From: Akkermansia sp.
GTDB lineage: Bacteria; Verrucomicrobiota; Verrucomicrobiia; Verrucomicrobiales; Akkermansiaceae
NCBI GenBank assembly: GCA_036644695.1
Contig: JAVXPO010000001.1
Span: 12,776 to 76,775 of the forward strand
Reading direction: 5' to 3'
DNA: 64,000 nt
The notes under the pieces were generated by a model that was not told where the DNA came from, did no database searches, and worked only from the letters and a program-made list of their open reading frames with translations. Both the position numbers and the translations under genes were made by a program. Shown one piece after another: positions 2,885-62,556 of the stretch. The number at the start of each line of letters is the position of its first letter. Position 1 is the stretch's first letter.

Positions 2885-4315
2885 TTAGTCTTTAGGCATT
2901 TTTTTGCCAGTTAAAGCTTTGTAGATGACCTTAGCCATGATCTCATGTCCTTGCCCGTTTGGGTGTACTTTATCGGGGACAAGATTGCTCTTGCCAACCA
3001 TGGGTTGATAAAGGTCAATGATTTCACATTTATTCTCTTTGGCTATTTTCATCATCAAGGGATTAATCTCGCCTTTGATGATGCTATCTCGAATCCCGTA
3101 ATTTTCTGGATAGGCAGGGATAGGTAACACGCAATAAATTTTTGCTTTGGGATTATTGAGGCGTAGCTCTTTGATCATCTCTTGATAATCTTTAGCAAAT
3201 TCATTGGCATGAGCCCAGTTTTGAGGTTTTGAATCATTGGTACCCAAGGCAATGAGAATAATATCTCCCTCAATTTGTTGAGCAATCTGATAATTTGGTC
3301 TCTTTTGATAAGCACCATCTCCATTATTCAAAAGAGTAGTAGCTGATATGCCTAGGTTGAAAACTTGGTAGGTATCGCCTAATGCCTTTTGGAGGCGATT
3401 TGTCCAACGTTCCTCTGGTCCAGCCCCAACGCCAAACGTGATGCTATCTCCTATGCAAACCACTCGTTGAGGTGCCTTATTGCCAGTTGCCTTGAGGGCA
3501 AAATTCACGATTGCGGCTGGATTTTCTAGGCTGTGGGGATGGTGATTAACCCCTGGCTTATGAATCACTTTAATATTGCCCCCCATTTTGCGGTATCTCT
3601 CTTCGACAATTGCCGTATTTTCAGCGACGGGAACGACATTATCGTCGTCGCCGACAACAGCTAAAATGGGGATTTTTGCTTTTGCCAAGGGGGCAAGATT
3701 ATCGATAGGATTTTTCTTGAACTTCATCGCCTTTTCGGGAGTGAATCCATAAATCTGGCAGAGTTTCGTCCAATCAGAGGGCGATCCAGCTCCCTTCCCC
3801 TTACCCCCTGGCCAGCTTTTGAAATCACACACGGGGGCATCCACATAAAGAGCCGTCACGCATTGAGGACGCAGGGCTGCCCAGTTAAAAGCATAGAGTC
3901 CTCCACGACTAAATCCCTCAAGAATCGGCTTAGCTGAGAGCTTATACTCTTTTTTAACATGAGTATAGTAAGCATCCATCAACTTCATCGCTTGGGGACT
4001 CCCGTACATATCCTCCATATTCATATACCCAACATGGAAACCACGCTTTGCCAATTCAATATCAGCAGCAGGAAAAGCATCAAAAAATTCTGTCCTCCAA
4101 ATCCAGGGATTCCCAGGTAGTGCTTTGTCGGGAACAATCAAGAGACAAGGCCTGTCAGCAACCTTAAAATCAAGGCGTTTCATTCCTTGCCATTGAGATT
4201 CCGCAGCAGTATCAATGGCTCTTGCTTCTGATACGACACAGGCTGTAGCACAAACGGATACAGGGAGTGTTAGAGGAGATAATAAACAGGTTAAAAAAAG
4301 GACTTTGAAATTCAT
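2885..4315 (-). CDS. Secreted two-domain esterase: alpha/beta hydrolase plus SGNH/GDSL domain
   Basis: Signal peptide (likely start MNFKVLF at 4315). GFSRGG nucleophile elbow with VVGDDD and HHPH; then SGNH blocks GDSIT, GISA, GTND, DKVHP. Confidence 0.85.
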   Translation of the reverse strand: MNFKVLFLTCLLSPLTLPVSVCATACVVSEARAIDTAAESQWQGMKRLDFKVADRPCLLIVPDKALPGNPWIWRTEFFDAFPAADIELAKRGFHVGYMNMEDMYGSPQAMKLMDAYYTHVKKEYKLSAKPILEGFSRGGLYAFNWAALRPQCVTALYVDAPVCDFKSWPGGKGKGAGSPSDWTKLCQIYGFTPEKAMKFKKNPIDNLAPLAKAKIPILAVVGDDDNVVPVAENTAIVEERYRKMGGNIKVIHKPGVNHHPHSLENPAAIVNFALKATGNKAPQRVVCIGDSITFGVGAGPEERWTNRLQKALGDTYQVFNLGISATTLLNNGDGAYQKRPNYQIAQQIEGDIILIALGTNDSKPQNWAHANEFAKDYQEMIKELRLNNPKAKIYCVLPIPAYPENYGIRDSIIKGEINPLMMKIAKENKCEIIDLYQPMVGKSNLVPDKVHPNGQGHEIMAKVIYKALTGKKMPKD

Positions 4316-31455: not shown

Positions 31456-31598
31456 ACCACATTCATACGTTCATCTTGCACAAGATGAAAGATTTTTTAC
31501 TCTTTCTTTTAGAAAATCATCTTTTTTATCTCATATTATGACATTGATAAGCATGCATCTTGTACAATATCATTTTCCTCTATATAAACATCTCGTTC

Positions 31599-34205
31599 AT
31601 GAATCAATCTTGTCCAGATTCTTTGCCAGAGTCTCTACATCGGCAAATTCATTCCTTCCGTCATCAATTACGAGTCGTTCGGATGCTTGATGCCTTGTAT
31701 CTATGTAGCATCACCATTGCTTTATCGTATTTACTCTTGTTTCTCTCTGATCGGATATGGGAAACTCCCCTCTCTTTCCTTTGGACTTGTTGTCTCATTG
31801 CAGGAATAGGAATGATCACATTTATACCATTTTTTGCCCTTAAATGGATATGGCGGTATCAATATACCAAGCAAATTGCAAAGCTCATTGAGCATGGCAA
31901 CCCACAATTAGGCGACCAACTCCTCAGTATTCTTGAGATAAATACCTCAAGCTCTATTGATACATCATCCATCACGCTAAGAATTGCAGCAAGAGAACAA
32001 ATGGCCGAGGCAATTGCCAACATTGATCTCTCACAATATCTACCAAAGTCCCACAACCGACTTTATGGCTCTATTCTAGGGATTCTAATTTTTTTCATTG
32101 TGTGCCTCTCCATCTTTGTCCCAGATGCAACGGTAAATACTTGGCTACGGTTTATATCACCAAATAATCCGCCAAAACGATTTACTCTTACTCAGTTAGA
32201 TTATCATCAAGTTCAAAAAATTATTCCTTTAGGAGAGCCAACTACCCTAGATATCCCCTTATTGACATCAACTCGCAAGAGACCTTTACAAGCCCAGTTT
32301 AAGCTCTCATCATCCCCATGGATTGATGTATCACTCAATCAACAGACACATTCTTATTCTCTGGAGATACCCTCTGTCTACCAAAAGGATACTCTTGAAT
32401 TTTCTGCTGGGGATGCGAGACAAACGATTCAACTGATTCCCGAATCACGTCCCTCATTAGAACGTGCTTTTGCCATCATCACTCCCCCCGCCTATACGGG
32501 GAAACAACCTTATACCGAAGAGCTCAAGGCAGGTACTATTACGGCACTTTATAACTCTACCGTACAAATTCACGCGATATCAACCAAAGAGTTAGAATCT
32601 GCCACAACAGTCGATAATCAACCCATTGATTATCTCAAAAAAACGGTAACCCTCCCTTCAATTACGGTCAAAAATGAGGCTCATGCATGGAAATTAAATT
32701 GGAGGGATATTCATCATCTAGTTAACTCAAGCCCCATCCATCTCTCTCTGACCCCTATTGAGGATCAAAATCCACAGATTCATGTAAGAGCTCAACAAAA
32801 TACTGCTTTTTTATTAGAAGAGACGAGTCTTGAGCTAGATTTAGAAGCTAATGATGATTATGGAGTCAATGAATTAGGCATTGAATGGGTTTCAGAAAAA
32901 GATCTCTCCAAGAATAAAGACACCCCTTCAATAAATTCTCTCCCCCCTCCCCCAAGCTCACACAAGATTGTAAAACAAGGTAACAACAATGATACTTCGT
33001 TAAAATCTCGCTTTGTTTTTCAGGCAAAATCACTGGGCATCACCCCTCAACGTATTGTTTTGCGCGGATTTGCCAAAGATTACTTCCCCAATCGTCCCAA
33101 TATCTACTCTCAGCCTCTCGTCATTCGTATCCTAAGCCATGCAGAACATGCTCAAATGATTCGCACCTGTATGGATCGTGTAGAAGGAGAACTCGATGAA
33201 ATTGCTAAAACCATGGATTCGATGGAAGATGAAATTCAACTCATCAGAAAACTTGAACATCATGAATTCGCTAATGACAATACGACAGAACGTCTCAATG
33301 CCCTCTCCAATATTGAACTCACAAACCGTAGAAAAATAGAGACACTCATTCAATTTTCTCAACAACTTTTTCTGCAAGGAACAAAAAATTCAGAAATTGA
33401 TCCAGACTCCCTTCAACAATTTATCAACGCTATTCAATCTCTCAAAAAGATTCCTCAAGAAATTGCGCAACAAGCACAAACTTATTTGAAAAATGCAGCT
33501 CAAGCTAACGATCCAGAAAAAAGAGAAAAAGCACTAACTAAAGGAGAGAGCAAGCATCTTGAAGCGACAGAAACACTTCGCAAAGCCATGAGTCAACTTA
33601 ATAAAAGTGCGCAAGAAATGGAATCAAGTACCTTTGTTGCACGGTTACGACAAGCCTCTCGCAAAGAAAAATCCATCTCTGAATCACTCGCCAGCAAACT
33701 CCCTCAACTAGCTGGGCTCTTCTCCAATGAATTATCTCAGACTCTCAATCGAGAATTAGATGCTCTCTATGCCTTACAACAAGCAGTCTCTAAAGATGTC
33801 TCATGGATTACTGAAGATTTGAAATTTTACAAATCGCGTACAGAAGAAGCGATTTATAGCGATTTATATACTCAAATGTTAACCCTCCCCATCTCGGAAA
33901 AAATGATGCAAATCTCAACAAGCATCAAAAATACACACGTAGGTATTGCCATTGAAAAATCTGACCAAATCTCCAATATCCTAGAGAAATGGGCTACCTT
34001 GATTGATGATTATAAAAAAAATCACCATTCCCAAGAATCTAGCTCTAGCGGAAGCGGTGGTGATAGCCAGGAGAAAGACGAAACCATGTCTGAATCTGAT
34101 TTTGAATTAATGCTAAAGATGATACGCATGATTCAACAGCAACAAGATATTCGCATCAGAACGAGAGCCGTCGAACAAGAACGAAGAACAAGCACCGCAT
34201 CATGA
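31599..34205 (+). CDS. Large membrane-anchored protein with coiled-coil C-terminus (DUF4175-like)
   Basis: Three N-terminal TMs, beta-rich middle (A.DDYGV motif), long Q/E/K helical tail; likely start 31599. Family assignment is from recall. Confidence 0.75.
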   Translation: MNQSCPDSLPESLHRQIHSFRHQLRVVRMLDALYLCSITIALSYLLLFLSDRIWETPLSFLWTCCLIAGIGMITFIPFFALKWIWRYQYTKQIAKLIEHGNPQLGDQLLSILEINTSSSIDTSSITLRIAAREQMAEAIANIDLSQYLPKSHNRLYGSILGILIFFIVCLSIFVPDATVNTWLRFISPNNPPKRFTLTQLDYHQVQKIIPLGEPTTLDIPLLTSTRKRPLQAQFKLSSSPWIDVSLNQQTHSYSLEIPSVYQKDTLEFSAGDARQTIQLIPESRPSLERAFAIITPPAYTGKQPYTEELKAGTITALYNSTVQIHAISTKELESATTVDNQPIDYLKKTVTLPSITVKNEAHAWKLNWRDIHHLVNSSPIHLSLTPIEDQNPQIHVRAQQNTAFLLEETSLELDLEANDDYGVNELGIEWVSEKDLSKNKDTPSINSLPPPPSSHKIVKQGNNNDTSLKSRFVFQAKSLGITPQRIVLRGFAKDYFPNRPNIYSQPLVIRILSHAEHAQMIRTCMDRVEGELDEIAKTMDSMEDEIQLIRKLEHHEFANDNTTERLNALSNIELTNRRKIETLIQFSQQLFLQGTKNSEIDPDSLQQFINAIQSLKKIPQEIAQQAQTYLKNAAQANDPEKREKALTKGESKHLEATETLRKAMSQLNKSAQEMESSTFVARLRQASRKEKSISESLASKLPQLAGLFSNELSQTLNRELDALYALQQAVSKDVSWITEDLKFYKSRTEEAIYSDLYTQMLTLPISEKMMQISTSIKNTHVGIAIEKSDQISNILEKWATLIDDYKKNHHSQESSSSGSGGDSQEKDETMSESDFELMLKMIRMIQQQQDIRIRTRAVEQERRTSTAS

Positions 34206-34834
34206 CAAGCCACCCATTGATCCTCTTTATGGCACTTACTTTTGCCTCTTTTCTTTCTCTATCCTTAGGGATAGAGCCCCCCTCTGCCATTGAGCTCTCT
34301 CGCGAACAAGATGAATTACAAGCCGATGCTTTTGACTTAATTGCCGAGCAAACAGATGAAAAAGTGATCACCCTCTTAGAGAAATGTCGCCATGCCATGA
34401 ATGACGCTGTCGATCTTTTAGAAAAAAATGAAACAGGGGGAGAAACGCTGGCGGCTCAATCAGAAGTAATGGAACGCATCTACCAAACCGCCAAACAACA
34501 CAACTCAACCCCTGATGGTAAAATGAAACCAGGAGCAAAAGGCATGATGGACATGATGCGCCAAATGCTCGGTATGAATGATGAAAATATAGCCCCTCCT
34601 CAAACACAAAATAATGAGAATCCACTCACCACAGAACAAAAATTTGGGCAAAGCTCAGGAAAACAAGTAGACGGAGTCAGTAATCTCAGTTCAGAACAAA
34701 TAAAGGGAGTATCGAACCCTAATATACTCAAAGAGCCTAGAGTCGTACCTCATGCAACTGGGACATCTCCATCAGAAATGCCACAAGAGTTTCAAAAAGC
34801 ACTTGAAGCCTATAATAAAACACTTCAACAATAG
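34202..34834 (+). CDS. Exported helical protein resembling the C-terminal part of DUF4175-like proteins
   Basis: ATGA overlap with the upstream gene; signal-peptide-like N-terminus; ends EMPQEFQKALEAYNKTL. Confidence 0.7.
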   Translation: MTSHPLILFMALTFASFLSLSLGIEPPSAIELSREQDELQADAFDLIAEQTDEKVITLLEKCRHAMNDAVDLLEKNETGGETLAAQSEVMERIYQTAKQHNSTPDGKMKPGAKGMMDMMRQMLGMNDENIAPPQTQNNENPLTTEQKFGQSSGKQVDGVSNLSSEQIKGVSNPNILKEPRVVPHATGTSPSEMPQEFQKALEAYNKTLQQ

Positions 34835-35872
34835 ATGCCCACCAGCTCCATGCTCAATACCCCCCTCATGCGTCTTATCCTTTTTTGTATACTCTCCTTC
34901 CCCTTGAGTATCAATAATGCTCATGCACAAAATCTAACTAGATTCAATGACATACCTACGAACGGAGACAACATCCCCCCACAAGTAGAGTCAATCTATC
35001 TTAAAGGATTGCGATTCCTGCAACAGGTACAAAAAGAGGATGGCTCTTTTGGCTCTAATTACGACAAGGATCCTGCCATTGCTGGTTTTTGCCTCATGAG
35101 CATCCTTGCTCATGGGGATGACCCCAATGTAGGACCTTTTGCCAATATGGCTAAAAAGTGCCTTTCCTTTATTCTCTCTCAGCAAAATAAAAAAACGGGA
35201 TACATTGGTTCAAGTATGTATTCTCATGGTTTTGCCACTTTGGCTTTGTCAGAGGCGTATGGTTATTTACGAGATGACCGCATCGGACCAGCGCTCAAAA
35301 AAGCAGTAGAGCTCACCCTCACCGCCCAAGAGAAAAATCCTCTTGGCGGATGGAGATACTCGCCCGATGCTACAGATGCTGATACCTCAGTAACTGGTTG
35401 CCAAATAGTCTCTCTCTATGCTGCGCGAAATGCTGGTATCCCCATTCCTGACAAGAATCTTACTAAAGCCTTACGATTTATGGCAAGTTGCCGAGATAAC
35501 GAGGGTACTTATGGATATGTTAATCCATCAGGAGGGAGAACAACTCTCTCTGCAATTGGATTACTAACTCTCTCTTTAGCAAAACAAAAAAAGGACTCTA
35601 GCTACAATCTAACATCCCGTTACCTCGTCAATAAAATCAATCATCGAGAAAGTACGTATCCTTTCTATTTTGAATACTACATGTCTCAGGCACTTTTTCA
35701 TTCAAATGAAAAAGCATGGCAAGAATGGAATCTCAAAAATATCCGCTACATGGCAAGCACACAATCTCCCAATGGATCATGGCTGAGCTCATCTGGTAAT
35801 GCTTATGCTACATCAGTTGCCCTCTTATCTCTTGCTGTCAACTTTCGCCTCTTGCCTATTTATGAAAAATAA
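34835..35872 (+). CDS. Prenyltransferase/squalene-oxidase-repeat (alpha/alpha barrel) protein
   Basis: QW-like repeats QKEDGSF, QNKKTGYIG, QEKNPLGGWRY, RDNEGTYGY, QSPNGSW; signal peptide. Confidence 0.88.
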   Translation: MPTSSMLNTPLMRLILFCILSFPLSINNAHAQNLTRFNDIPTNGDNIPPQVESIYLKGLRFLQQVQKEDGSFGSNYDKDPAIAGFCLMSILAHGDDPNVGPFANMAKKCLSFILSQQNKKTGYIGSSMYSHGFATLALSEAYGYLRDDRIGPALKKAVELTLTAQEKNPLGGWRYSPDATDADTSVTGCQIVSLYAARNAGIPIPDKNLTKALRFMASCRDNEGTYGYVNPSGGRTTLSAIGLLTLSLAKQKKDSSYNLTSRYLVNKINHRESTYPFYFEYYMSQALFHSNEKAWQEWNLKNIRYMASTQSPNGSWLSSSGNAYATSVALLSLAVNFRLLPIYEK

Positions 35873-37289
35873 ATATTTTAGAGTAATCCTCATTACTCTT
35901 ACCTTTATGGGCATTCCCTCGTCATGGGCTATCCCTGCTGAAGTTTTTATGACAGATGGGTATAAGCTCCACGGGGATATCATCTCTATAGATTCACAAC
36001 ATACAATCATCAAACACCCAGAGGCAAATCCCTCCCTATCCATCAAAAATACTGCCATCCAATCAATAACAATCTATTCAGAATTTGGAACCCCACAACC
36101 TTATCACGATAAAATTTATCTTGCGGATACTCCATCAGATATTATCCCTTGTACGATTAAAAGTATCGATCACCAAGGAATTCATTTCTCTAGTTTTTTT
36201 GGAGAAAACACTCAACTTCCCTTAGATCATATATCAGGAGTAAGATTATCTAAATCAGATCGTTTCATCAATCTGCTCCCCACTCCATTCACCTTTGATA
36301 AAACGTGGCTTCATTATGATAACCCAAAGATTGCAAGTGCCTATCTTGCATCATTACGCCCAGTTACAAAAGATAACAAAACAAGCTATACTCTAGCCTC
36401 ACACATATTTCTCAGTAAAGATGTTGGTCTCAACCCTATCGCATTTAATTTTGAAGTAAGCCTACCTGCTGAAAAACAAAAATCTCTTAGTGTTTCCTTC
36501 ACCTTTGGAGGCAATTCAAAAGATATCCTTCTCATCGGCAATAATACTCCCCTCCCAGAGGCAAGAGCCATCACTATACTCACAATCACCAATACCACTT
36601 GCTCTTTATTTATAGTAGAAAAAAATAGTCGAGCTAAAATGATTTTACAAGCCCCTATTCCTCTCCAAAAGATTCCCTGTACCATCAAACTAACGGCACA
36701 CTCACTCTCTCAAGGCAAAATCACCTATGAACTAACGAGTACAGGGAGAGAGCCCATTCACTATACACTTAATAGCACAAAGGACATTCAGCCGGAAGGA
36801 TCTTATTTTGCCATACAAAACAACTTATTTGGGACGAAAGATTGTGAAAATCCAATCATCAGTGATTTACACCTCTCAACGCAAGCACCCATCCCCTCAG
36901 AGCCACCCAATCGCTCCCCTCAATTCGATGTATTAAAAATGACCAATGGTCAATCTCTTACAGGCAAACTCATCTCGCTAAAGATTAAAGATAAAAAACT
37001 CTCGTTCCTCATCCAAGGACAAAAAGAACCATCAGAATTCATCTCTGATCAAGTAACCTTTATTCTACTCAAACAATCCCAATCTGCCAATAATGCCGAT
37101 ACCCCAACCTACGAGGATAACACCGTTTATTTGAAAAATGGATGCAATTGGAATGGTAAAATAATTTCGCTCAATACAAAACGACTCATTATCAAACACC
37201 CAACGCTTGGCAAAACATCTATCCCATTCAATCTCATTAGGAGTATTGAATTTCACCATCAAGCCCCACCCATCCGTTCCCTGCCATGA
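35862..37289 (+). CDS. Exported hypothetical protein with four short beta-rich repeats
   Basis: Repeats such as VFMTDGYKLHGDIISID, LKMTNGQSLTGKLISL, VYLKNGCNWNGKIISL; likely start MKNKYF at 35862. Confidence 0.75.
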   Translation: MKNKYFRVILITLTFMGIPSSWAIPAEVFMTDGYKLHGDIISIDSQHTIIKHPEANPSLSIKNTAIQSITIYSEFGTPQPYHDKIYLADTPSDIIPCTIKSIDHQGIHFSSFFGENTQLPLDHISGVRLSKSDRFINLLPTPFTFDKTWLHYDNPKIASAYLASLRPVTKDNKTSYTLASHIFLSKDVGLNPIAFNFEVSLPAEKQKSLSVSFTFGGNSKDILLIGNNTPLPEARAITILTITNTTCSLFIVEKNSRAKMILQAPIPLQKIPCTIKLTAHSLSQGKITYELTSTGREPIHYTLNSTKDIQPEGSYFAIQNNLFGTKDCENPIISDLHLSTQAPIPSEPPNRSPQFDVLKMTNGQSLTGKLISLKIKDKKLSFLIQGQKEPSEFISDQVTFILLKQSQSANNADTPTYEDNTVYLKNGCNWNGKIISLNTKRLIIKHPTLGKTSIPFNLIRSIEFHHQAPPIRSLP

Positions 37290-38701
37290 AAAAGATACTC
37301 ACATTGCTTTTTAGTTTCCTTTATCTATTGGCTCCATGGATTCCAGCGGAAGAAGCTAATCCCCAACATCAAATCATTGAATTAACCCCTGACGATTCGA
37401 TACTAGGGGAATGGCTCAATGACCCAACTCAAGGCAAAATACTTATTCAATCGCCTCTCATTACAGGGAAATCACGATTTAACATCAAGGGGCTCCGCTC
37501 AATAACCCTCAATAATACACTCAAACGAGAACGTGGTACAAGCATCACCAAACTAGTCAATGGTGACATCATCCGTGGCGCACTAACAAAAACTACTAAT
37601 GACAGCATCATCCTGAGCACCTCATGGTGCCATAACCTACACATCCCCAAAGCGTTTATTAAAGAACTAGGCTTTGAACAAAATAAAAACATCATTTTTT
37701 CAGGAGATGGATCACTCACATTATGGTCATATCCACGAACGAATAATTCATGGATTAGTAATGAATTAGGGCTCACATGTCTATCTTCTCAAGATGAAAT
37801 AACTAGAGATATGCAATTGCCTGAGTCGATTCATCTTTCGTTAACCATCATTGCACCATCCAAAAACATCGTCCCTATGCATATAAAATTGTGGTGCTCG
37901 CCTCCAGGCAGTAGCGTCAAAAACGACTATTTTGATTTTTATATGTTCGCCCACATCGCACGCGTCATGCTAGTCAACAAAGGTATCGAGTATAATCTTG
38001 GTTCGCCATTGCTCGAACAGGCGATGGAGGCTCGTAAGAGGAAAACGACAAATTCCAGCCGCATCGACTTATTCGCAAACCGAAATACAGGAGTTTTTTA
38101 TTTATATATTGATGGGCAACTCAATGGAGAATGGAATATTAACGCCCTCATGGCAGAGCAAGAAGAGGAAGGGAAACCCACAGACAACCCATTACCGCAT
38201 TTAGTATGTGGGTCTGGCTTCTCCTTTGGTTTCCTCAATAATATCCCGGGTTCCATCTCTGACTTAAACATCTACTCATGGAATGGTCATCCACTTGGAC
38301 AATCTTTGCCTCTCCCTTTTGTTGAAGGAGAAAATCCATCTAGCTCACATAAAACAGGTGAAGATATCTACCTCATCAACGGAGATAAACTAACAGGTAA
38401 CTTGAGCCTCGATTCACCAGACTCAATCACGGTCAAATCCCCACTCTATCAGGTAAGTATCCCCATGGATAAAATAATACGTCTTGGACTCAAAAAACAA
38501 GACTCCTCCCCCTGCAACCTAAAAGACACCACGAATATAAAAATCATTCTAACAGATGGGGCTTGCATCAGTGGCACATACAAAATGCTCAACGACAACC
38601 ACCTCAATATCAGGACAAAAATAATGGGTGATTTATCAATCCCTAAAGAGGAAATTAAAAAAGTTTTGTTCATTCTCAATAAAAAGCCAGAGCTCCAATG
38701 A
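37286..38701 (+). CDS. Exported hypothetical protein with the same architecture as 35862..37289
   Basis: Repeats KLVNGDIIRGAL, YLINGDKLTGNL, ILTDGACISGTY; ATGA overlap with the upstream gene. Confidence 0.75.
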   Translation: MKKILTLLFSFLYLLAPWIPAEEANPQHQIIELTPDDSILGEWLNDPTQGKILIQSPLITGKSRFNIKGLRSITLNNTLKRERGTSITKLVNGDIIRGALTKTTNDSIILSTSWCHNLHIPKAFIKELGFEQNKNIIFSGDGSLTLWSYPRTNNSWISNELGLTCLSSQDEITRDMQLPESIHLSLTIIAPSKNIVPMHIKLWCSPPGSSVKNDYFDFYMFAHIARVMLVNKGIEYNLGSPLLEQAMEARKRKTTNSSRIDLFANRNTGVFYLYIDGQLNGEWNINALMAEQEEEGKPTDNPLPHLVCGSGFSFGFLNNIPGSISDLNIYSWNGHPLGQSLPLPFVEGENPSSSHKTGEDIYLINGDKLTGNLSLDSPDSITVKSPLYQVSIPMDKIIRLGLKKQDSSPCNLKDTTNIKIILTDGACISGTYKMLNDNHLNIRTKIMGDLSIPKEEIKKVLFILNKKPELQ

Positions 38702-40408: not shown

Positions 40409-40453
40409 GAAACCGCTGATTGATAGAGATCACTCTATCAATCAGTGGCTTTC
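40409..40453. terminator. Long hairpin after trpB
   Basis: CCGCTGATTGATAGAG-ATCA-CTCTATCAATCAGTGG, flanked by GAAA/TTTC. Confidence 0.7.
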
Positions 40454-40475: not shown

Positions 40476-41243
40476 ATGAAAATCATCGCAATCGCAAACC
40501 AAAAAGGAGGCGTTGGCAAGACAACCACAGCCATCAACCTCTCCGCTGCCCTTGCCCTGAGAAAAAAGAAAATCCTGCTTATTGACCTCGACCCTCAAGC
40601 CAATGCCACAAGCGGACTAGGCATTGACGCCCCAGAAGACAAAAGTCTCTATCAAGCTCTATTAGGTAAAGGATCTGTCCGTGATAGCATCATGCCCTCA
40701 GGGCGCAAAAACCTAGACATCATCCCCTCCAACATGGATCTATCTGGTGTCGAAATCGAGCTTGCCCAGTCAGGCAACCACCTCACCCGCCTAAGAAACA
40801 CGCTTGCCCCCTTAAAAAGCGAAAACGATTACGACTTTTGCATCTTGGACACCCCTCCATCACTAGGTGTCCTCATGACATCTTCTCTCGCTGCATGTGA
40901 TGAAGTCCTCACACCACTACAATGTGAATGGTTTGGGCTAGAAGGACTAGCAAAAATCATCCACGTCATCTCACAAATCTGTCTCTCAGGTGCCAACCCA
41001 ACCCTTAAACACGAGGGAGTCCTCATGACTATGTACGACGGACGCACCAATCTCTCGCGACAAGTCTTTGATCAAGTCAAAGAATACATGCCAGAAACAC
41101 TCTACACAACAGTCATCCCGCGCTCCATCCGACTAGGGGAAGCCCCAAGCTTCGGGCGCACAATCTTCGAACACGACCCCAACGGCTCAGCCTCCCAAGC
41201 CTATATGGCAGCAGCCAAACTATTCATCAAACGCCACAAATAA
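40476..41243 (+). CDS. parA: ParA/Soj family ATPase
   Basis: [31 protein letters not shown]. Confidence 0.95.
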
Positions 41244-41270: not shown

Positions 41271-43814
41271 ATGAAAAAATCCCTCTTAAAAACAATACTC
41301 TCCTTTGCCGTAGCTCCAGCTTTAGCGGCATTAACCGTATTGATTGCATTATTTATCAATGGAATTTATCCCTTTGGTGCTGAAACATTCTATCATTGGG
41401 ATAATGGAATACAAATAGCTCCATTCTATGCTCACTTATATGATATTATATCAGGTCAGGGGGAGGGGGGGGCTTTTTATAGTTTAGAGGCAGGAGGAAT
41501 GCCAATAACTGGCGCCTATCATATACAAGCATTATTATTCCCCTCTACTTGGATTATTTTCCTTACAGGAAAAGAAATGATGGTCGAAAATCTCTCATGG
41601 GTAATTGTTGGAATTGCATCATTAACTTCCTTTATCTATTTTTATGTAGCTCACAAAAAATTAGATGTATTTTGGCAAATTACATTCAGTTATCTATATG
41701 CAATTAGCGGATATATTCTCTGCAAGCATCAATTTATCAATTTTTTAAATTTCATGATTATTTTTCCGCTTATAGCATTAGGATTTCAGCAATTATGTAA
41801 ATTTAGGAAGTACCTTCTTCTTTTCATCACTCTTTTCATATCATTAGTATCTTGGTATTACATGACATTTCCTATCCTCTTAACTACTACTATCGGGATA
41901 GGGTTATACGCTTTCCTTTTTCTTTCTGGAACGGAAAGGAAAAAAATTATTTTGCTTTACTCAATTGTTGTGTCATCAGCAATCATTCTCTCATCGTTCT
42001 CATGGGCTCCTACTATTTCTCTAACTATGAATTCTGTTAGATGTGGTTTACCTATTCCATACTTACATGAGTGTGTTCGATTCATAAAGTCACCTAGTTT
42101 AACTGAAAATATTTTTAATATTTATGCAGGAGCTATCTGTTTAGTTATTATAGCAAGCGTAAAATTTTCAAAAATAGAAAATAAACAATTGATTTTATTC
42201 GGGGCAATATTAGCATTTCTCTTGCTTCCATTATTAATTTATCCGTCTTTTCTTGTTTTTCATGGAGGAAGCTATGTTTGTTATCCTTTTCGATATGCAT
42301 ATATTCCAACATTTATTATATTAATTTGTTGTGCGTTTATTATAGAGAAGAAATATATTAAACAAAACATCATATTTTCATCGCCCAAATTCAATATTTT
42401 TATTCGATTATTTTCCATTACATTATTATTAACTTCAATCATTGGATTAATTATTTTGTATTCTCATAATAATATTCCTAAAGGCAGAAGTATTTTGGGG
42501 ATTCTATTTTTTATTGGATCTTTTATTTTTTATTTAACTATTGATCTAAAAAACCGAAAAAGCACATTCCTTTATATTATTATGGGAATTTTTATTTTTT
42601 TAGAAGGAACAATTTTTTTCATGTGTCGTGTTCCAGAACTCTCTCCTTTACCAGAAAAATTACGAACACTTGAATTTAAACACGCAGAACAAATCGTAAA
42701 AGGAGGAATTTACTCATCATATCCATTATCTAGAATAAAAAATAAATATGCTGCCTTACCTTATAACTTTTCCTTACTAACAAAAATCCCATCTCTTGAA
42801 TCTTATACACATACCACTAGTAAAAAACATCAAGATTTCCTTGTTTCACTGGGTTACGACCGCCAGTATACCCTTACACGAGAAGAGGGAGGCACCATGT
42901 TTACTGATGCACTTTTTGCCGTTACTACTATATTTACTAGTGATCAATTAAATCCTAAGTTTTACGAATACTCACAAACACTTGATCAAGATTTTTATAT
43001 CTATCGTCAAAAGATAACACTTCCTTGGGGAATTATTGTACCTGATTCAGCAATTGGGATAAATATCTCTCATGAGACTAATCCTTTTAATGCGCAAAAC
43101 ATATTATTTTCAACTCTATCCGAAAATAAAACTCTTCTCTTTTCTACATACTCTGAAACCAATGAGGATCAGTCCATGTATTATATGTGGCCTCTCCTAT
43201 TTGATAAACATCCTTTGTATAGACAAAGCTATGGTTCCAGCAAAAATGGAATACGAGAGTTAACTCAAGCGGAAGCTAAGCAATACTCTCATCATCCTGA
43301 TGTTTTATCTGGTAAGCATTCTCTGATGCAGATCAATATGCCTCTTTTTGAGCAATTTGCTCGGGATCATGCGAACGATCAAGTTCATTTCCGTGGGGAT
43401 GGACGATATTTTCAGATGAGTATTCTTAATTCAGCAGGATTGGGGAAAGCTGTTTTGGTTCCTCTTATCTTTTATCCTGGGTGGGAGGCTACCATTAATG
43501 GCAACGATGTTCCTGTTGAAAAAATTGGGGAGTTGATTGCCATTCGTCTTGAACCCGGGAATAATGAAATTACCTTAACATATTGGCCTCCTTTGCTTCG
43601 TGGGAGCCTTATCGTTTGTGGTATCTTTTTAGCTCTTTTGTTGGGAACCATGTACCTGTATAAAAAACGTCCAAATCTCACCTTATGGTCTAAAGTCATG
43701 CTCCCCTCTCTTAAATTATCTAATATTTTATTCTGGTGTTCGTTCTGGGGTATTTTATTTATCATTTTTATTTTTGCACCCCTTTACGTCCTTATCTATA
43801 ATCTCGTACGATAA
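41271..43814 (+). CDS. YfhO-family (GT-C-like) polytopic membrane protein, copy 1
   Basis: GIYPFG...D..Q..PFY N-terminus, about 12 TMs, YPFRY motif, C-terminal PGWEATING...LIAIRLEPGNNEITLTYWPP; AT-rich. Confidence 0.85.
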   Translation: MKKSLLKTILSFAVAPALAALTVLIALFINGIYPFGAETFYHWDNGIQIAPFYAHLYDIISGQGEGGAFYSLEAGGMPITGAYHIQALLFPSTWIIFLTGKEMMVENLSWVIVGIASLTSFIYFYVAHKKLDVFWQITFSYLYAISGYILCKHQFINFLNFMIIFPLIALGFQQLCKFRKYLLLFITLFISLVSWYYMTFPILLTTTIGIGLYAFLFLSGTERKKIILLYSIVVSSAIILSSFSWAPTISLTMNSVRCGLPIPYLHECVRFIKSPSLTENIFNIYAGAICLVIIASVKFSKIENKQLILFGAILAFLLLPLLIYPSFLVFHGGSYVCYPFRYAYIPTFIILICCAFIIEKKYIKQNIIFSSPKFNIFIRLFSITLLLTSIIGLIILYSHNNIPKGRSILGILFFIGSFIFYLTIDLKNRKSTFLYIIMGIFIFLEGTIFFMCRVPELSPLPEKLRTLEFKHAEQIVKGGIYSSYPLSRIKNKYAALPYNFSLLTKIPSLESYTHTTSKKHQDFLVSLGYDRQYTLTREEGGTMFTDALFAVTTIFTSDQLNPKFYEYSQTLDQDFYIYRQKITLPWGIIVPDSAIGINISHETNPFNAQNILFSTLSENKTLLFSTYSETNEDQSMYYMWPLLFDKHPLYRQSYGSSKNGIRELTQAEAKQYSHHPDVLSGKHSLMQINMPLFEQFARDHANDQVHFRGDGRYFQMSILNSAGLGKAVLVPLIFYPGWEATINGNDVPVEKIGELIAIRLEPGNNEITLTYWPPLLRGSLIVCGIFLALLLGTMYLYKKRPNLTLWSKVMLPSLKLSNILFWCSFWGILFIIFIFAPLYVLIYNLVR

Positions 43815-43816
43815 TT
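41475..43816 (+). repeat. 2342-bp direct repeat, copy 1
   Basis: Matches 44022..46363 at every segment compared; shadow ORFs recur unchanged at +2547 (41852/44399, 43072/45619, 43472/46019). Confidence 0.95.
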
Positions 43817-43820
43817 CATT

Positions 43821-46361
43821 ATGAAAAAATCACTATTAAAAACAATATTCTCCTTTGCCGCAGCTCCAGCTTTAGCGGCATTAACCGTATTGATTGCATT
43901 CTATATCAATGGAGTCTATCCCTTTGGAGCTGAAACCCTCTATTTCATGGATAATGGGATACTGCTTGTTCCATTTTATTCCCACTTATACGATCTTTTA
44001 TCCGGTCAAGGTGGATCCTTCTTTTATAGTTTAGAGGCAGGAGGAATGCCAATAACTGGCGCCTATCATATACAAGCATTATTATTCCCCTCTACTTGGA
44101 TTATTTTCCTTACAGGAAAAGAAATGATGGTCGAAAATCTCTCATGGGTAATTGTTGGAATTGCATCATTAACTTCCTTTATCTATTTTTATGTAGCTCA
44201 CAAAAAATTAGATGTATTTTGGCAAATTACATTCAGTTATCTATATGCAATTAGCGGATATATTCTCTGCAAGCATCAATTTATCAATTTTTTAAATTTC
44301 ATGATTATTTTTCCGCTTATAGCATTAGGATTTCAGCAATTATGTAAATTTAGGAAGTACCTTCTTCTTTTCATCACTCTTTTCATATCATTAGTATCTT
44401 GGTATTACATGACATTTCCTATCCTCTTAACTACTACTATCGGGATAGGGTTATACGCTTTCCTTTTTCTTTCTGGAACGGAAAGGAAAAAAATTATTTT
44501 GCTTTACTCAATTGTTGTGTCATCAGCAATCATTCTCTCATCGTTCTCATGGGCTCCTACTATTTCTCTAACTATGAATTCTGTTAGATGTGGTTTACCT
44601 ATTCCATACTTACATGAGTGTGTTCGATTCATAAAGTCACCTAGTTTAACTGAAAATATTTTTAATATTTATGCAGGAGCTATCTGTTTAGTTATTATAG
44701 CAAGCGTAAAATTTTCAAAAATAGAAAATAAACAATTGATTTTATTCGGGGCAATATTAGCATTTCTCTTGCTTCCATTATTAATTTATCCGTCTTTTCT
44801 TGTTTTTCATGGAGGAAGCTATGTTTGTTATCCTTTTCGATATGCATATATTCCAACATTTATTATATTAATTTGTTGTGCGTTTATTATAGAGAAGAAA
44901 TATATTAAACAAAACATCATATTTTCATCGCCCAAATTCAATATTTTTATTCGATTATTTTCCATTACATTATTATTAACTTCAATCATTGGATTAATTA
45001 TTTTGTATTCTCATAATAATATTCCTAAAGGCAGAAGTATTTTGGGGATTCTATTTTTTATTGGATCTTTTATTTTTTATTTAACTATTGATCTAAAAAA
45101 CCGAAAAAGCACATTCCTTTATATTATTATGGGAATTTTTATTTTTTTAGAAGGAACAATTTTTTTCATGTGTCGTGTTCCAGAACTCTCTCCTTTACCA
45201 GAAAAATTACGAACACTTGAATTTAAACACGCAGAACAAATCGTAAAAGGAGGAATTTACTCATCATATCCATTATCTAGAATAAAAAATAAATATGCTG
45301 CCTTACCTTATAACTTTTCCTTACTAACAAAAATCCCATCTCTTGAATCTTATACACATACCACTAGTAAAAAACATCAAGATTTCCTTGTTTCACTGGG
45401 TTACGACCGCCAGTATACCCTTACACGAGAAGAGGGAGGCACCATGTTTACTGATGCACTTTTTGCCGTTACTACTATATTTACTAGTGATCAATTAAAT
45501 CCTAAGTTTTACGAATACTCACAAACACTTGATCAAGATTTTTATATCTATCGTCAAAAGATAACACTTCCTTGGGGAATTATTGTACCTGATTCAGCAA
45601 TTGGGATAAATATCTCTCATGAGACTAATCCTTTTAATGCGCAAAACATATTATTTTCAACTCTATCCGAAAATAAAACTCTTCTCTTTTCTACATACTC
45701 TGAAACCAATGAGGATCAGTCCATGTATTATATGTGGCCTCTCCTATTTGATAAACATCCTTTGTATAGACAAAGCTATGGTTCCAGCAAAAATGGAATA
45801 CGAGAGTTAACTCAAGCGGAAGCTAAGCAATACTCTCATCATCCTGATGTTTTATCTGGTAAGCATTCTCTGATGCAGATCAATATGCCTCTTTTTGAGC
45901 AATTTGCTCGGGATCATGCGAACGATCAAGTTCATTTCCGTGGGGATGGACGATATTTTCAGATGAGTATTCTTAATTCAGCAGGATTGGGGAAAGCTGT
46001 TTTGGTTCCTCTTATCTTTTATCCTGGGTGGGAGGCTACCATTAATGGCAACGATGTTCCTGTTGAAAAAATTGGGGAGTTGATTGCCATTCGTCTTGAA
46101 CCCGGGAATAATGAAATTACCTTAACATATTGGCCTCCTTTGCTTCGTGGGAGCCTTATCGTTTGTGGTATCTTTTTAGCTCTTTTGTTGGGAACCATGT
46201 ACCTGTATAAAAAACGTCCAAATCTCACCTTATGGTCTAAAGTCATGCTCCCCTCTCTTAAATTATCTAATATTTTATTCTGGTGTTCGTTCTGGGGTAT
46301 TTTATTTATCATTTTTATTTTTGCACCCCTTTACGTCCTTATCTATAATCTCGTACGATAA
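43821..46361 (+). CDS. YfhO-family (GT-C-like) polytopic membrane protein, copy 2
   Basis: Protein identical to copy 1 from FYSLEAGG onward; first ~67 aa diverged. Confidence 0.85.
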   Translation: MKKSLLKTIFSFAAAPALAALTVLIAFYINGVYPFGAETLYFMDNGILLVPFYSHLYDLLSGQGGSFFYSLEAGGMPITGAYHIQALLFPSTWIIFLTGKEMMVENLSWVIVGIASLTSFIYFYVAHKKLDVFWQITFSYLYAISGYILCKHQFINFLNFMIIFPLIALGFQQLCKFRKYLLLFITLFISLVSWYYMTFPILLTTTIGIGLYAFLFLSGTERKKIILLYSIVVSSAIILSSFSWAPTISLTMNSVRCGLPIPYLHECVRFIKSPSLTENIFNIYAGAICLVIIASVKFSKIENKQLILFGAILAFLLLPLLIYPSFLVFHGGSYVCYPFRYAYIPTFIILICCAFIIEKKYIKQNIIFSSPKFNIFIRLFSITLLLTSIIGLIILYSHNNIPKGRSILGILFFIGSFIFYLTIDLKNRKSTFLYIIMGIFIFLEGTIFFMCRVPELSPLPEKLRTLEFKHAEQIVKGGIYSSYPLSRIKNKYAALPYNFSLLTKIPSLESYTHTTSKKHQDFLVSLGYDRQYTLTREEGGTMFTDALFAVTTIFTSDQLNPKFYEYSQTLDQDFYIYRQKITLPWGIIVPDSAIGINISHETNPFNAQNILFSTLSENKTLLFSTYSETNEDQSMYYMWPLLFDKHPLYRQSYGSSKNGIRELTQAEAKQYSHHPDVLSGKHSLMQINMPLFEQFARDHANDQVHFRGDGRYFQMSILNSAGLGKAVLVPLIFYPGWEATINGNDVPVEKIGELIAIRLEPGNNEITLTYWPPLLRGSLIVCGIFLALLLGTMYLYKKRPNLTLWSKVMLPSLKLSNILFWCSFWGILFIIFIFAPLYVLIYNLVR

Positions 46362-46363
46362 TT
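44022..46363 (+). repeat. 2342-bp direct repeat, copy 2
   Basis: See copy 1; period 2547 bp. Confidence 0.95.
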
Positions 46364-46469
46364 GAGATGAGGCAGTGTTATTATTTTTGACATAAAGCCC
46401 TTTTGTCGGATGGACAAGGGGCTTGGGATGACTTATTCTCCCTTTGTTTTAACACTTCCCTCTTTTTTG

Positions 46470-47909
46470 ATGATGCTTCCTCAATTATTATGTACTATTG
46501 GAGCAGTCGTTTTGCTTTCGGCTGGGCAAGCTTTTGGCTGGCAAGCCTCTCGTGAGGCTGTGCCTATGCCACAGCAGGAGTTTCGCGCTGCTTGGATTGC
46601 CTCTGTTCATAATCTTGATTGGCCATCCAGGGCAGGACTTTCTGCGGGAGCGCAACAAGCGGAGCTTATACGCATTTTGAATACTTGTGCTCAATTGCAT
46701 ATCAATGCCATTTTACTCCAAGTTCGCCCCAACTCCGATGCCTTGTATCGATCTTCTATTGAACCTTGGAGTCAATGGCTCTCGGGTGCTGGCGTCAATC
46801 CTGGCTACGATCCTCTAGCATTTGCTGTTGCTCAAGCTCATCTTCGTGGGTTAGAACTACACGCATGGCTCAACCCCTTCCGAGCTAAGGCAAATGTCAA
46901 TCATCCCGTCGGAGCTAGACATATTTCCCTCACTCATCCCGAAGCAATGAAACGTGCAGGGTCTGTTCTGATTGCAGATCCAGGCATGTCAAGCTCACGC
47001 AATCAAATCCTCAACGTTATTTCTGATATTGTTTCAAGATATGATGTCGATGGCATTCATCTCGACGATTATTTTTATCCCTATCCGCCAGCTGTACTTC
47101 GAGACGGCAAGTCTTCCTCACAACGTCGTGCTTATATCGACTCTTTTGTTGAGGATATGTATGATCTTGTTAAGTCAAAAAAGCCATGGGTTCGAGTTGG
47201 GATTAGTCCCTTTGGTATTTGGCGTCCAGGAGTCCCTGCTGGGATTGAGGCAGGTGTTGATGCTTACGAACATCTTGCCTGCGATGCTCGCAAATGGCTG
47301 TCTAAAGGTTGGGTAGATTACCTAGCTCCCCAGCTCTATTGGAGGTGCTCGCCACAAAAGCAAAGCTTCCCTGCACTCATGCAATGGTGGGCAGCTCAAA
47401 ATCCAAGTCGTCCAATTTGGCCAGGTATTGCTACTGCACGTATTCAAAGTTCTGAAGACCCAGGCAGAACGTCCTCGGAGATTGATCGTCAGGTCGCTTT
47501 TTCTCGTAGCCTTGCGCGTACTTATCCTGGTCAATGTTTTTGGAGTGTCAAATCGATCATGCAAAATAAGGGGGATATTAAGAATCATCTCCAACAGCTC
47601 TATTCGGGTGCCGCCGTCCCCCCACCAATGCCTTGGTGTGGTACTGATACACCTGGTAAACCTTCGTTAACTGCCAATAGTAGTAGCAATGGTGGTATTT
47701 TCATGCAATGGAGTTCATCTGGAGAACCCTCTCGCAAATGGGTCATCCAGGCACGCTACGGTTCTCGTTGGGGGACTTTGTGTATCTTGCCAGGACAGCA
47801 GACGAAATTGAGTCTACCCGGCTCTTTTATCGGCGATGCCGATGCTATCTCTGTCCGTGGCATTTCGCCCTTTGGCTCCATCAGTGAGGCAGCTACAGTC
47901 ACTCGATAA
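46470..47909 (+). CDS. Glycoside hydrolase, GHL10/UPF0748 (YddW/DigH-like) family
   Basis: EFRAAWIASVHNLDWP, ELHAWLNPFR, DGIHLDDYFYPY, DYLAPQLYW; likely start ~46470 with signal peptide. Confidence 0.9.
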   Translation: MMLPQLLCTIGAVVLLSAGQAFGWQASREAVPMPQQEFRAAWIASVHNLDWPSRAGLSAGAQQAELIRILNTCAQLHINAILLQVRPNSDALYRSSIEPWSQWLSGAGVNPGYDPLAFAVAQAHLRGLELHAWLNPFRAKANVNHPVGARHISLTHPEAMKRAGSVLIADPGMSSSRNQILNVISDIVSRYDVDGIHLDDYFYPYPPAVLRDGKSSSQRRAYIDSFVEDMYDLVKSKKPWVRVGISPFGIWRPGVPAGIEAGVDAYEHLACDARKWLSKGWVDYLAPQLYWRCSPQKQSFPALMQWWAAQNPSRPIWPGIATARIQSSEDPGRTSSEIDRQVAFSRSLARTYPGQCFWSVKSIMQNKGDIKNHLQQLYSGAAVPPPMPWCGTDTPGKPSLTANSSSNGGIFMQWSSSGEPSRKWVIQARYGSRWGTLCILPGQQTKLSLPGSFIGDADAISVRGISPFGSISEAATVTR

Positions 47910-62467: not shown

Positions 62468-62556
62468 GGAGGGGTGGCAGAGCGGTTTAATGCACCTGTC
62501 TTGAAAACAGACGTAGCCACAAGCTACCGTGGGTTCGAATCCCACCCCCTCCGCCA
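62468..62556 (+). tRNA. tRNA-Ser (anticodon TGA)
   Basis: GGAGGGG/CCCCTCC acceptor stem, GCCA end, D-loop GAGCGGTTTAA, anticodon loop CT-TGA-AA, long variable arm, GGTTCGAATCC T-loop. Confidence 0.98.

Follow-up and report, generated by a model that had tools for sequence, protein, structure and literature searches.

A tandem pair of YfhO-family glycosyltransferase genes with diverged heads and bodies that appear identical in an uncultured Akkermansia species

How do two neighbouring genes come to have clearly different 5' ends and, from one nucleotide onwards, bodies without a single difference in the assembly? The question is raised by a 64,000-nt stretch of Akkermansia sp. DNA (GenBank assembly GCA_036644695.1, contig JAVXPO010000001.1, positions 12,776 to 76,775; hereafter the window), in which two genes of the YfhO family of glycosyltransferases with the C-type fold (GT-C) lie head to tail between a parA gene and a gene for a GHL10 (glycosyl hydrolase-like 10) protein. 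We lean, with somewhat more than even confidence, towards a genuine accessory GT-C tandem in a strain-variable parA-GHL10 locus, with old heads and with bodies kept alike by recombination. The features needed to follow the argument are given here in window coordinates; membrane topology is as predicted.

40476..41243, + strand: gene for a ParA/Soj-like ATPase (Pfam AAA_31/CbiA/ParA), the conserved left flank, present in all other metagenome-assembled genomes (MAGs) of the species
41271..43814, + strand: copy A, YfhO-family GT-C glycosyltransferase gene (Pfam PF09586, E 6e-66)
41271..41474, + strand: variable head A, codons 1-68, with the MKK start (cytoplasmic), first transmembrane helix (TM1), first periplasmic loop and helix 43-60
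41274..41279, + strand: A6 tract immediately 3' of the copy A ATG
41459..41472, + strand: G5-A-G8 tract, confined to copy A; 2 nt separate it from the identical body
41475..43816, + strand: shared body, copy 1, 2342 bp, with the rest of the transmembrane domain, the beta-rich periplasmic domain and two C-terminal transmembrane helices
43815..43820, + strand: tandem junction, the 6-nt spacer TTCATT from the stop codon of A to the ATG of B
43821..46361, + strand: copy B, YfhO-family GT-C glycosyltransferase gene (Pfam PF09586, E 6e-67)
43821..44021, + strand: variable head B, codons 1-67; its first 100 nt are the start of the C allele of other strains
44022..46363, + strand: shared body, copy 2, 2342 bp
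46410..47909, + strand: GHL10 gene (Pfam PF02638, E 1e-51), the conserved right flank

The repeat and its recurrence in other assemblies

Both open reading frames (ORFs) are intact and encode proteins of 847 aa (A) and 846 aa (B) that are 98% identical. A base-by-base comparison yielded one unbroken identical run of 2342 bp at an offset of 2547 bp (41475-43816 = 44022-46363), which stops 2 nt past the stop codon in each copy. At the level of the assembly, this bears out the period and limits proposed in a sequence-only reading of the window, as do the minus-strand shadow ORFs, which are duplicated along with the genes (43472..43765 and 46019..46312, 97 aa each). The 5' ends, 204 nt long in A and 201 nt in B, are only ~84% identical and differ by 38 substitutions and a one-codon (3-nt) indel; replacements fall in 16 codons and changes that are silent only in 11, the silent sites including TCC/TCA at codon 4, GGT/GGA at codon 36 and TAT/TAC at codon 57. 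Homology upstream of each ATG reaches only 2-6 nt. A change from 16% divergence to no differences in 2342 bp cannot be due to chance. The block is also, as had been remarked, richer in AT than its surroundings: its GC content is 0.29-0.38, compared with 0.47-0.49 in the flanks and a genome mean of 0.462 (SD 0.033 in 2.5-kb windows), which places it ~4 SD below the mean and ranks it with the roughly five genomic islands that are richest in AT.

All assemblies considered here are fragmented, short-read-type MAGs, apparently from one project; the window lies on a 123-kb contig of a 2.14-Mb genome in 132 contigs, and the contigs of the other MAGs are 32-87 kb long. The sequence-only reading had named an assembly that collapsed two divergent paralogs as its main alternative. 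The comparison with related genomes that it called for showed that GCA_036646075.1 and GCA_036642915.1, two more assemblies of this species, have the parA-A-B-GHL10 order and the junction as well. Over 14 kb they match the window at 99.6-99.7% identity, and in each of them the two bodies are again identical, at assembly level. L005 and L006 have the TTCATT junction.

In a more radical version of the artefact there would be no tandem, and the contig would fuse sequence from two strains living side by side, each with a single gene and its own type of head. In favour of such a chimera, the sequences come from metagenomes, and the broken contigs betray mixtures of strains. Against this, a join that runs from the 3' end of a body through the stop codon, TTCATT and ATG into head B is beyond what a strain bubble can produce: A and B have only ~13 nt in common around the ATG, so that the junction arises neither from a strain bubble nor from a k-mer chimera. 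Moreover, the same junction occurs in three assemblies whose strains differ by SNPs (single-nucleotide polymorphisms), and we regard the chimera as very improbable. An exact look-up of the ParA protein, which samples the locus without bias, retrieved contigs of three further MAGs that end inside the gene, at nt 214, 205 and 198, all within 10 nt of the head/body boundary. Breaks there are expected if a repeated body is entered from two unlike heads; in many other MAGs the contig breaks at other places within the gene. We conclude that the head-to-tail tandem is genuine and is kept in at least three strains.

Within the genome of the window, blastn with the repeat unit found only the two copies and no leftover variant contigs in the bin, and a whole-genome scan with the YfhO family model found exactly two genes, A and B. 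Contigs of the JGI metagenome collection gave no match to the junction in an exact scan or to the protein in a protein-based scan, and a scan of genome contigs found no relative. Near-identical proteins at NCBI are labelled "MAG: YfhO family protein, partial [Akkermansia sp.]".

Identity of the bodies

To what extent the two bodies are alike can be judged from a six-sequence alignment of copies A and B from three assemblies (the window, L005 and L006). All head differences are fixed across the three strains, and head A is identical in all three except for its A-tract. Body changes between strains (12 SNPs and a 9-nt indel) are present in both copies of a genome, and each of the three has the boundary at nt 205. 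Among the 12 body SNPs is a patch of five (columns 1962-1980) that both copies of L006 carry. The sole body difference within a genome is at column 258 in copy B of L005, where it results in Q85P, 53 nt from the boundary. As seen in the assemblies, the two copies of one genome resemble each other more than either resembles its orthologue in another genome, and the boundary is sharp; taken at face value, this would be textbook concerted evolution, with a count of zero differences as read from short-read-type assemblies.

These data can also be explained if the tandem is real and its exact identity and concerted pattern are products of assembly. Bodies up to ~1-2% apart would have been collapsed to one edge, and the pair would go back to a fairly recent duplication followed by head replacement, with no ongoing homogenisation. 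The fragmentation of the MAGs, into 132 contigs here and contigs of 32-87 kb elsewhere, fits this explanation, and in most of the species' other MAGs a contig break falls in or at the gene. In addition, the sole inter-copy difference lies within k-mer reach of the unique head, and the lack of leftover variant contigs is uninformative, since binning would drop them. However, even if collapsed, the bodies are far more alike than the heads (16%, dS, the synonymous divergence, 0.5), and the sharp boundary is real. Because assembly collapse cannot hide dense divergence, the bodies must be at least ~98-99% alike as opposed to heads that are 16% apart, and this mosaic structure is robust to the way in which the assemblies were made. 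Kilobase tandem repeats are, furthermore, expected to exchange often in vivo, and the five-SNP patch in both L006 copies is a recombination patch. We regard a pure assembly product as unlikely, if still deserving of attention, and ongoing homogenisation of the bodies as likely. Of the collapse suggested in the sequence-only reading, the part concerning the tandem and its junction falls away, and what stands is that zero body differences could still be assembler-made. More generally, the locus is a cautionary case: exact kilobase tandem identity in short-read MAGs is not evidence of gene conversion without reads.

The variable head and its alleles

YfhO of Bacillus subtilis, Staphylococcus aureus and Listeria is the GT-C part of the three-component CsbB-GtcA-YfhO glycosylation system (PMC5836110, PMC8035078). 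The assignment of A and B to this family, made from the translations in the sequence-only reading, was upheld by Pfam PF09586, which scored 224 and 227 bits (cut-off 28.5) over model positions 4-634 of 835. The best NCBIfam match of copy A is the streptococcal PgfM2 (NF047590), at 66 bits far below its cut-off of 1500. An AlphaFold model built from a 16-sequence alignment (pLDDT, the per-residue confidence, 70.2; pTM, the predicted TM-score, 0.73) has a membrane domain made of helices, a domain rich in beta strands (~aa 485-770) and, at the C-terminus, two helices. When the PDB was searched by sequence, neither a homologue nor a solved structure of the family came up. In a Foldseek search of the same database with the model, ranks 1-16 are all GT-C enzymes, including AftA (8if8), ArnT (5ezm/5f15), AglB, STT3, PglB (3rce), AftD, DPY19 and EmbC; ranks 1-15 have probabilities of 0.93-1.0 and rank 16 (EmbC, 7bvh) one of 0.66, the E-values are marginal (from 9e-4) and the TM-scores are 0.45-0.47 per target. 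As modelled, both A and B thus belong to the GT-C fold.

Among the residues invariant in the 16-sequence family alignment are Y33, P34, F35, G36 and D44, which are in the head; A and B retain every invariant residue. In the model, TM1 is helix 5-30, the YPFG motif occupies positions 33-36, and helix 43-60, which lies in the first extracytoplasmic loop, starts with D44. D44 is the conserved acidic residue that GT-C enzymes carry in this loop, and a catalytic role for it would follow from other GT-C enzymes (PMC8035078). Considering that TM1 and the D44 helix both fall within codons 1-68, the 68-codon variable head is predicted to comprise TM1 and the catalytic-loop region. The 16 replacements and the indel sit at family-variable positions, for example H42-W43 versus F42-M43 just before D44. 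A single uncultured species thus has two forms of one GT-C glycosyltransferase, and it is precisely around the loop predicted to form the active site that the two part. Should the two heads give different products, nature would have done a head swap from which one could learn what sets donor or acceptor specificity in the YfhO family, which is still poorly understood.

Comparison of heads A and B gave dS 0.52, a replacement divergence (dN) of 0.14 and dN/dS of 0.27. They are old functional alleles under purifying selection, neither recently diverged nor positively selected. Diversifying selection on the head is unsupported at this dN/dS, and a recent duplication followed by fast divergence of the head was rejected in view of the 11 silent-only codons, a dS of ~0.5 and 0 differences in the body.

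The two heads are not confined to this pair. Other MAGs of the species, recognised by the conserved left flank, have next to parA an allele (C) whose nt 1-100 are those of head B; its identity to the A/B body is 52-81% over nt 100-1500 and ~100% over nt 1600-1950. In GCA_036662475.1, one contig has a mosaic B/A head on an A/B body, and on another the common 3' part is preceded by sequence of a fourth type, D (nt 1200-1330). Further contigs show a-b-c-b and b-a-a-a block combinations inside the head, and B-type heads are the common form adjoining parA in other strains. The divergent part of the C and D alleles covers the membrane domain, and the last ~900 nt are common to all alleles (GCA_036662475.1, L054 1-1354 and L053 2655-3658; L007-L009 from 8001). 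Contigs often stop soon after entering the shared 3' part, and those genomes may also hold two copies that share the 3' module only.

By sequence, the heads are not private to the pair and look like blocks of a mosaic allele pool that circulates in the species. From such a pool the pair could have arisen by recombination or unequal crossover between alleles, which accounts for it no less well than an old duplication in place. The scenario of the sequence-only reading, an old duplication with recently homogenised bodies, consequently stands in part: the heads are old (dS ~0.5) and the concerted pattern extends across strains, and the mosaic pool accounts for the pair equally well.

Head A is polymorphic in one further respect. 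The A-tract behind its ATG is A6 in the window, L060 and L061 and A7 in L005 and L006 (at 3441-3450 in both) and L059 (~7796), so that three of the six assemblies with an A-type start have A7; all ten B- or C-type starts have A6. The additional A shifts the frame and leads to a stop at codon 38, with no canonical in-frame start before codon 24; the database annotation of an A7 copy gives a rescued 842-aa product with an ATA start. In 7 kb of flanking sequence, no informative SNP supports the A6|A7 split and conflicting splits are common. The state of the tract does not follow the flank SNP genealogy, which is suggestive, with six genomes and a short tract, of recurrent slippage or recombination and not of one inherited decay event. 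The G5-A-G8 tract showed no length variation among the assemblies that contain it; this homopolymer lies in an otherwise 30%-GC gene, and contig L061 ends inside it.

The frameshift raises the possibility that the pair is a neutral or transient by-product of an unequal crossover between A-head and B-head alleles, with no division of labour and with A on its way to becoming a pseudogene. Half of the assemblies with copy A have it frameshifted (3/6), B-type heads are common next to parA in other strains, and the sister species and the rest of the phylum have at most one gene: with the family model, YfhO genes were found in 11 of 151 Verrucomicrobiota genomes, eight of them in the genus Akkermansia, as a single gene each except in the present genome. 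Kilobase-scale perfect tandem duplications are quickly lost by RecA-dependent recombination, and a simple deletion between the repeats would here remove head B. The pair is nevertheless kept in at least three distinct strains despite the fast loss expected of 2.3-kb direct repeats, from which we infer selection to retain it. Nor do both heads look like decaying sequence, being under purifying selection with all invariant residues kept, and the A6/A7 state does not track the flank genealogy, unlike a single decay event. On balance, a purely neutral origin seems to us rather improbable.

Proposed mechanism, genomic setting and related systems

The explanation that we favour, a genuine tandem with old heads and bodies kept alike by recombination, could operate as follows. 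Unequal or allelic recombination inside the mosaic allele pool is the most likely source of the pair. RecA-type exchange between the direct repeats, as gene conversion or as cycles of unequal crossover, would keep the bodies alike and would halt where 16% divergence removes the homology that it needs. Each protein would take a sugar from a polyprenyl-phosphate-sugar made and flipped by GT2/GtrA genes elsewhere in the genome and would transfer it, in the periplasm, to an envelope acceptor: lipopolysaccharide (LPS), capsule or protein. The two heads would be two versions of the active-site entrance, with A and B perhaps differing in specificity, and the slippage-prone A6/A7 tract would turn copy A off in some strains. 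That the locus diversifies envelope glycans, as the sequence-only reading had suggested, is plausible, since the predicted catalytic-loop region belongs to the variable module and copy A is polymorphic for an on/off frameshift. Akkermansia is a prominent gut genus whose surface molecules shape host responses and phage susceptibility.

A more elaborate possibility is a module-swap system, in which head blocks are shuffled between copies and strains, the body is held uniform by gene conversion and A is toggled by slippage in its A-tract. We consider it a long shot. If true, it would give one bacterium alternative envelope-glycan decorations from one enzyme chassis, provide a prokaryotic counterpart of the variable-first-exon glycosyltransferase clusters, and equip Akkermansia with surface variation against phages or host immunity. 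A programmed DNA switch was rejected: no inverton-type inverted repeats were found around the pair, no recombinase lies near it, and the only tRNA is at 62468.

Several points weigh against the favoured explanation. With regard to the assemblies, a de Bruijn assembler that resolves a simple loop walks one edge twice once SNP bubbles have been popped, and zero differences and shared strain changes could then arise by construction; Q85P sits where an assembler can still phase variants and hints at hidden differences further in; the mosaic-head contigs could partly be assembly chimeras at a 39-nt stretch common to A and B; and the copy number might exceed two. The A6/A7 tract is short for a classical contingency locus. 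With regard to function, the locus holds no GT2 or GtrA partner, the neighbours being parA and GHL10 in place of a three-component cassette, and the envelope acceptors named for the A and B enzymes are candidates.

Genes for such partners are present at two other places in the same genome. On contig C28 (G000:C28:5500-14500; L051 1043-4695) there is a canonical GT2 - GT-C - GtrA cassette, whose 742-aa GT-C product is a sub-threshold YfhO match. Contig C19 (G000:C19:2500-11500; L052 3963-8467) carries, in order, genes for GtrA, a GLF-like flavoprotein, a GT2 and a 655-aa LA_3751/2-like putative glycosyltransferase, a cluster as AT-rich as the pair. The C28 and C19 genes could supply polyprenyl-phosphate-sugar donors in trans. 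As for the acceptor, an LptF/G gene within the window points to a diderm host, in which teichoic acids are not expected; LPS, capsule and protein are all possible.

Compared to the CsbB-GtcA-YfhO system, the Akkermansia proteins have in common PF09586, a multi-pass GT-C architecture with a conserved acidic residue in its first external loop, and a C-terminal domain that is large and extracytoplasmic, and would be expected to use a C55-P-sugar donor outside the membrane. They differ in that no GT2 (CsbB) gene is adjacent, the host is a diderm, presumably without teichoic acids, and the genes form a tandem with alternative heads. YfhO-type enzymes also act on proteins, as in the streptococcal PgfM2/Pgf system (PMC12041528), and a Bacteroidota YfhO is a predicted O-oligosaccharyltransferase (bioRxiv 10.64898/2026.07.27.740950). 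The family thus reaches beyond teichoic acids and has diderm gut bacteria among its hosts. The Bacteroidota YfhO is, however, conserved, single-copy and probably essential, whereas the Akkermansia pair is accessory, strain-variable and AT-rich.

Within the phylum, the nearest of the scanned YfhO genes is 26% identical (G007). The nearest homologues outside Akkermansia are ~25% identical (range ~20-25%), for example on a Firmicute-like contig from the Hadza gut, and no donor of the AT-rich block was identified among homologues at this distance. That contig (L066; YfhO P0007, 25% identical) has a bAvd and reverse-transcriptase pair at 1160-2845, ~4 kb upstream of its YfhO gene. Such a pair is typical of a diversity-generating retroelement and is probably unrelated to the YfhO gene.

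The flanking genes parA and GHL10 are adjacent only in this species when compared with G044, G007, G046 and G042, and in G044 they are ~68 kb apart. The YfhO block appears from this comparison to sit at a synteny breakpoint, and no empty site is definable, parA and GHL10 not being neighbours in the sister species. The pair is an accessory and probably horizontally exchanged gene at a species-specific junction.

Concerted evolution by RecA-dependent gene conversion has been described for Salmonella tufA/tufB (PMC5485169) and for rRNA operons (PMC8022953). As in those systems, paralogues within a genome are here more similar than orthologues between strains and the tract boundaries are sharp. 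In contrast to them, the Akkermansia genes are adjacent direct repeats, to which unequal crossover also applies, one terminal module escapes, and the evidence is at assembly level. In mammalian UGT1A (PMC1885805), alternative N-terminal modules are likewise combined with a constant glycosyltransferase body, a functional analogy; there, eukaryotic splicing uses one physical body, whereas in Akkermansia the body is physically duplicated.

Helicobacter pylori offers a further parallel. Its futA and futB are paralogous tract-switched fucosyltransferases of the cytoplasmic GT-B type, and BabA and BabB are adhesins. The Akkermansia pair resembles these genes in being paralogous, putative surface or glycan genes with segments that appear identical, probable intragenomic exchange of modules and, perhaps, homopolymer slippage. 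The protein families are different, and switching in H. pylori is experimentally shown. Gene conversion between babA and babB is cited in PMC2806470. We see in the Akkermansia genes a probable new case of paralogues that recombination keeps alike, at a surface-sugar locus that varies between strains.

Three putative regulatory sites lie in or near the block.

40413-40448: terminator-like site, a 16-bp hairpin, upstream of parA
43773..43802, + strand: promoter-like site (TTTGCA-18-TATAAT; weak consensus match) at the body's 3' end, with 18 nt between it and the ATG of B
46320-46349: repeat copy of the promoter-like site, 60 nt before the ATG of GHL10

Consensus matches in the region were not above shuffled expectation in a promoter scan. 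If active, the promoter-like site before copy B would let B be transcribed independently of a frameshifted A.

Further upstream, positions 31560-38701 hold a conserved co-directional block of five genes (881, 210, 345, 496 and 471 aa). Four of the products fall in no Pfam family, and the 345-aa product is a weak match to the prenyltransferase/terpene-cyclase alpha-alpha-toroid.

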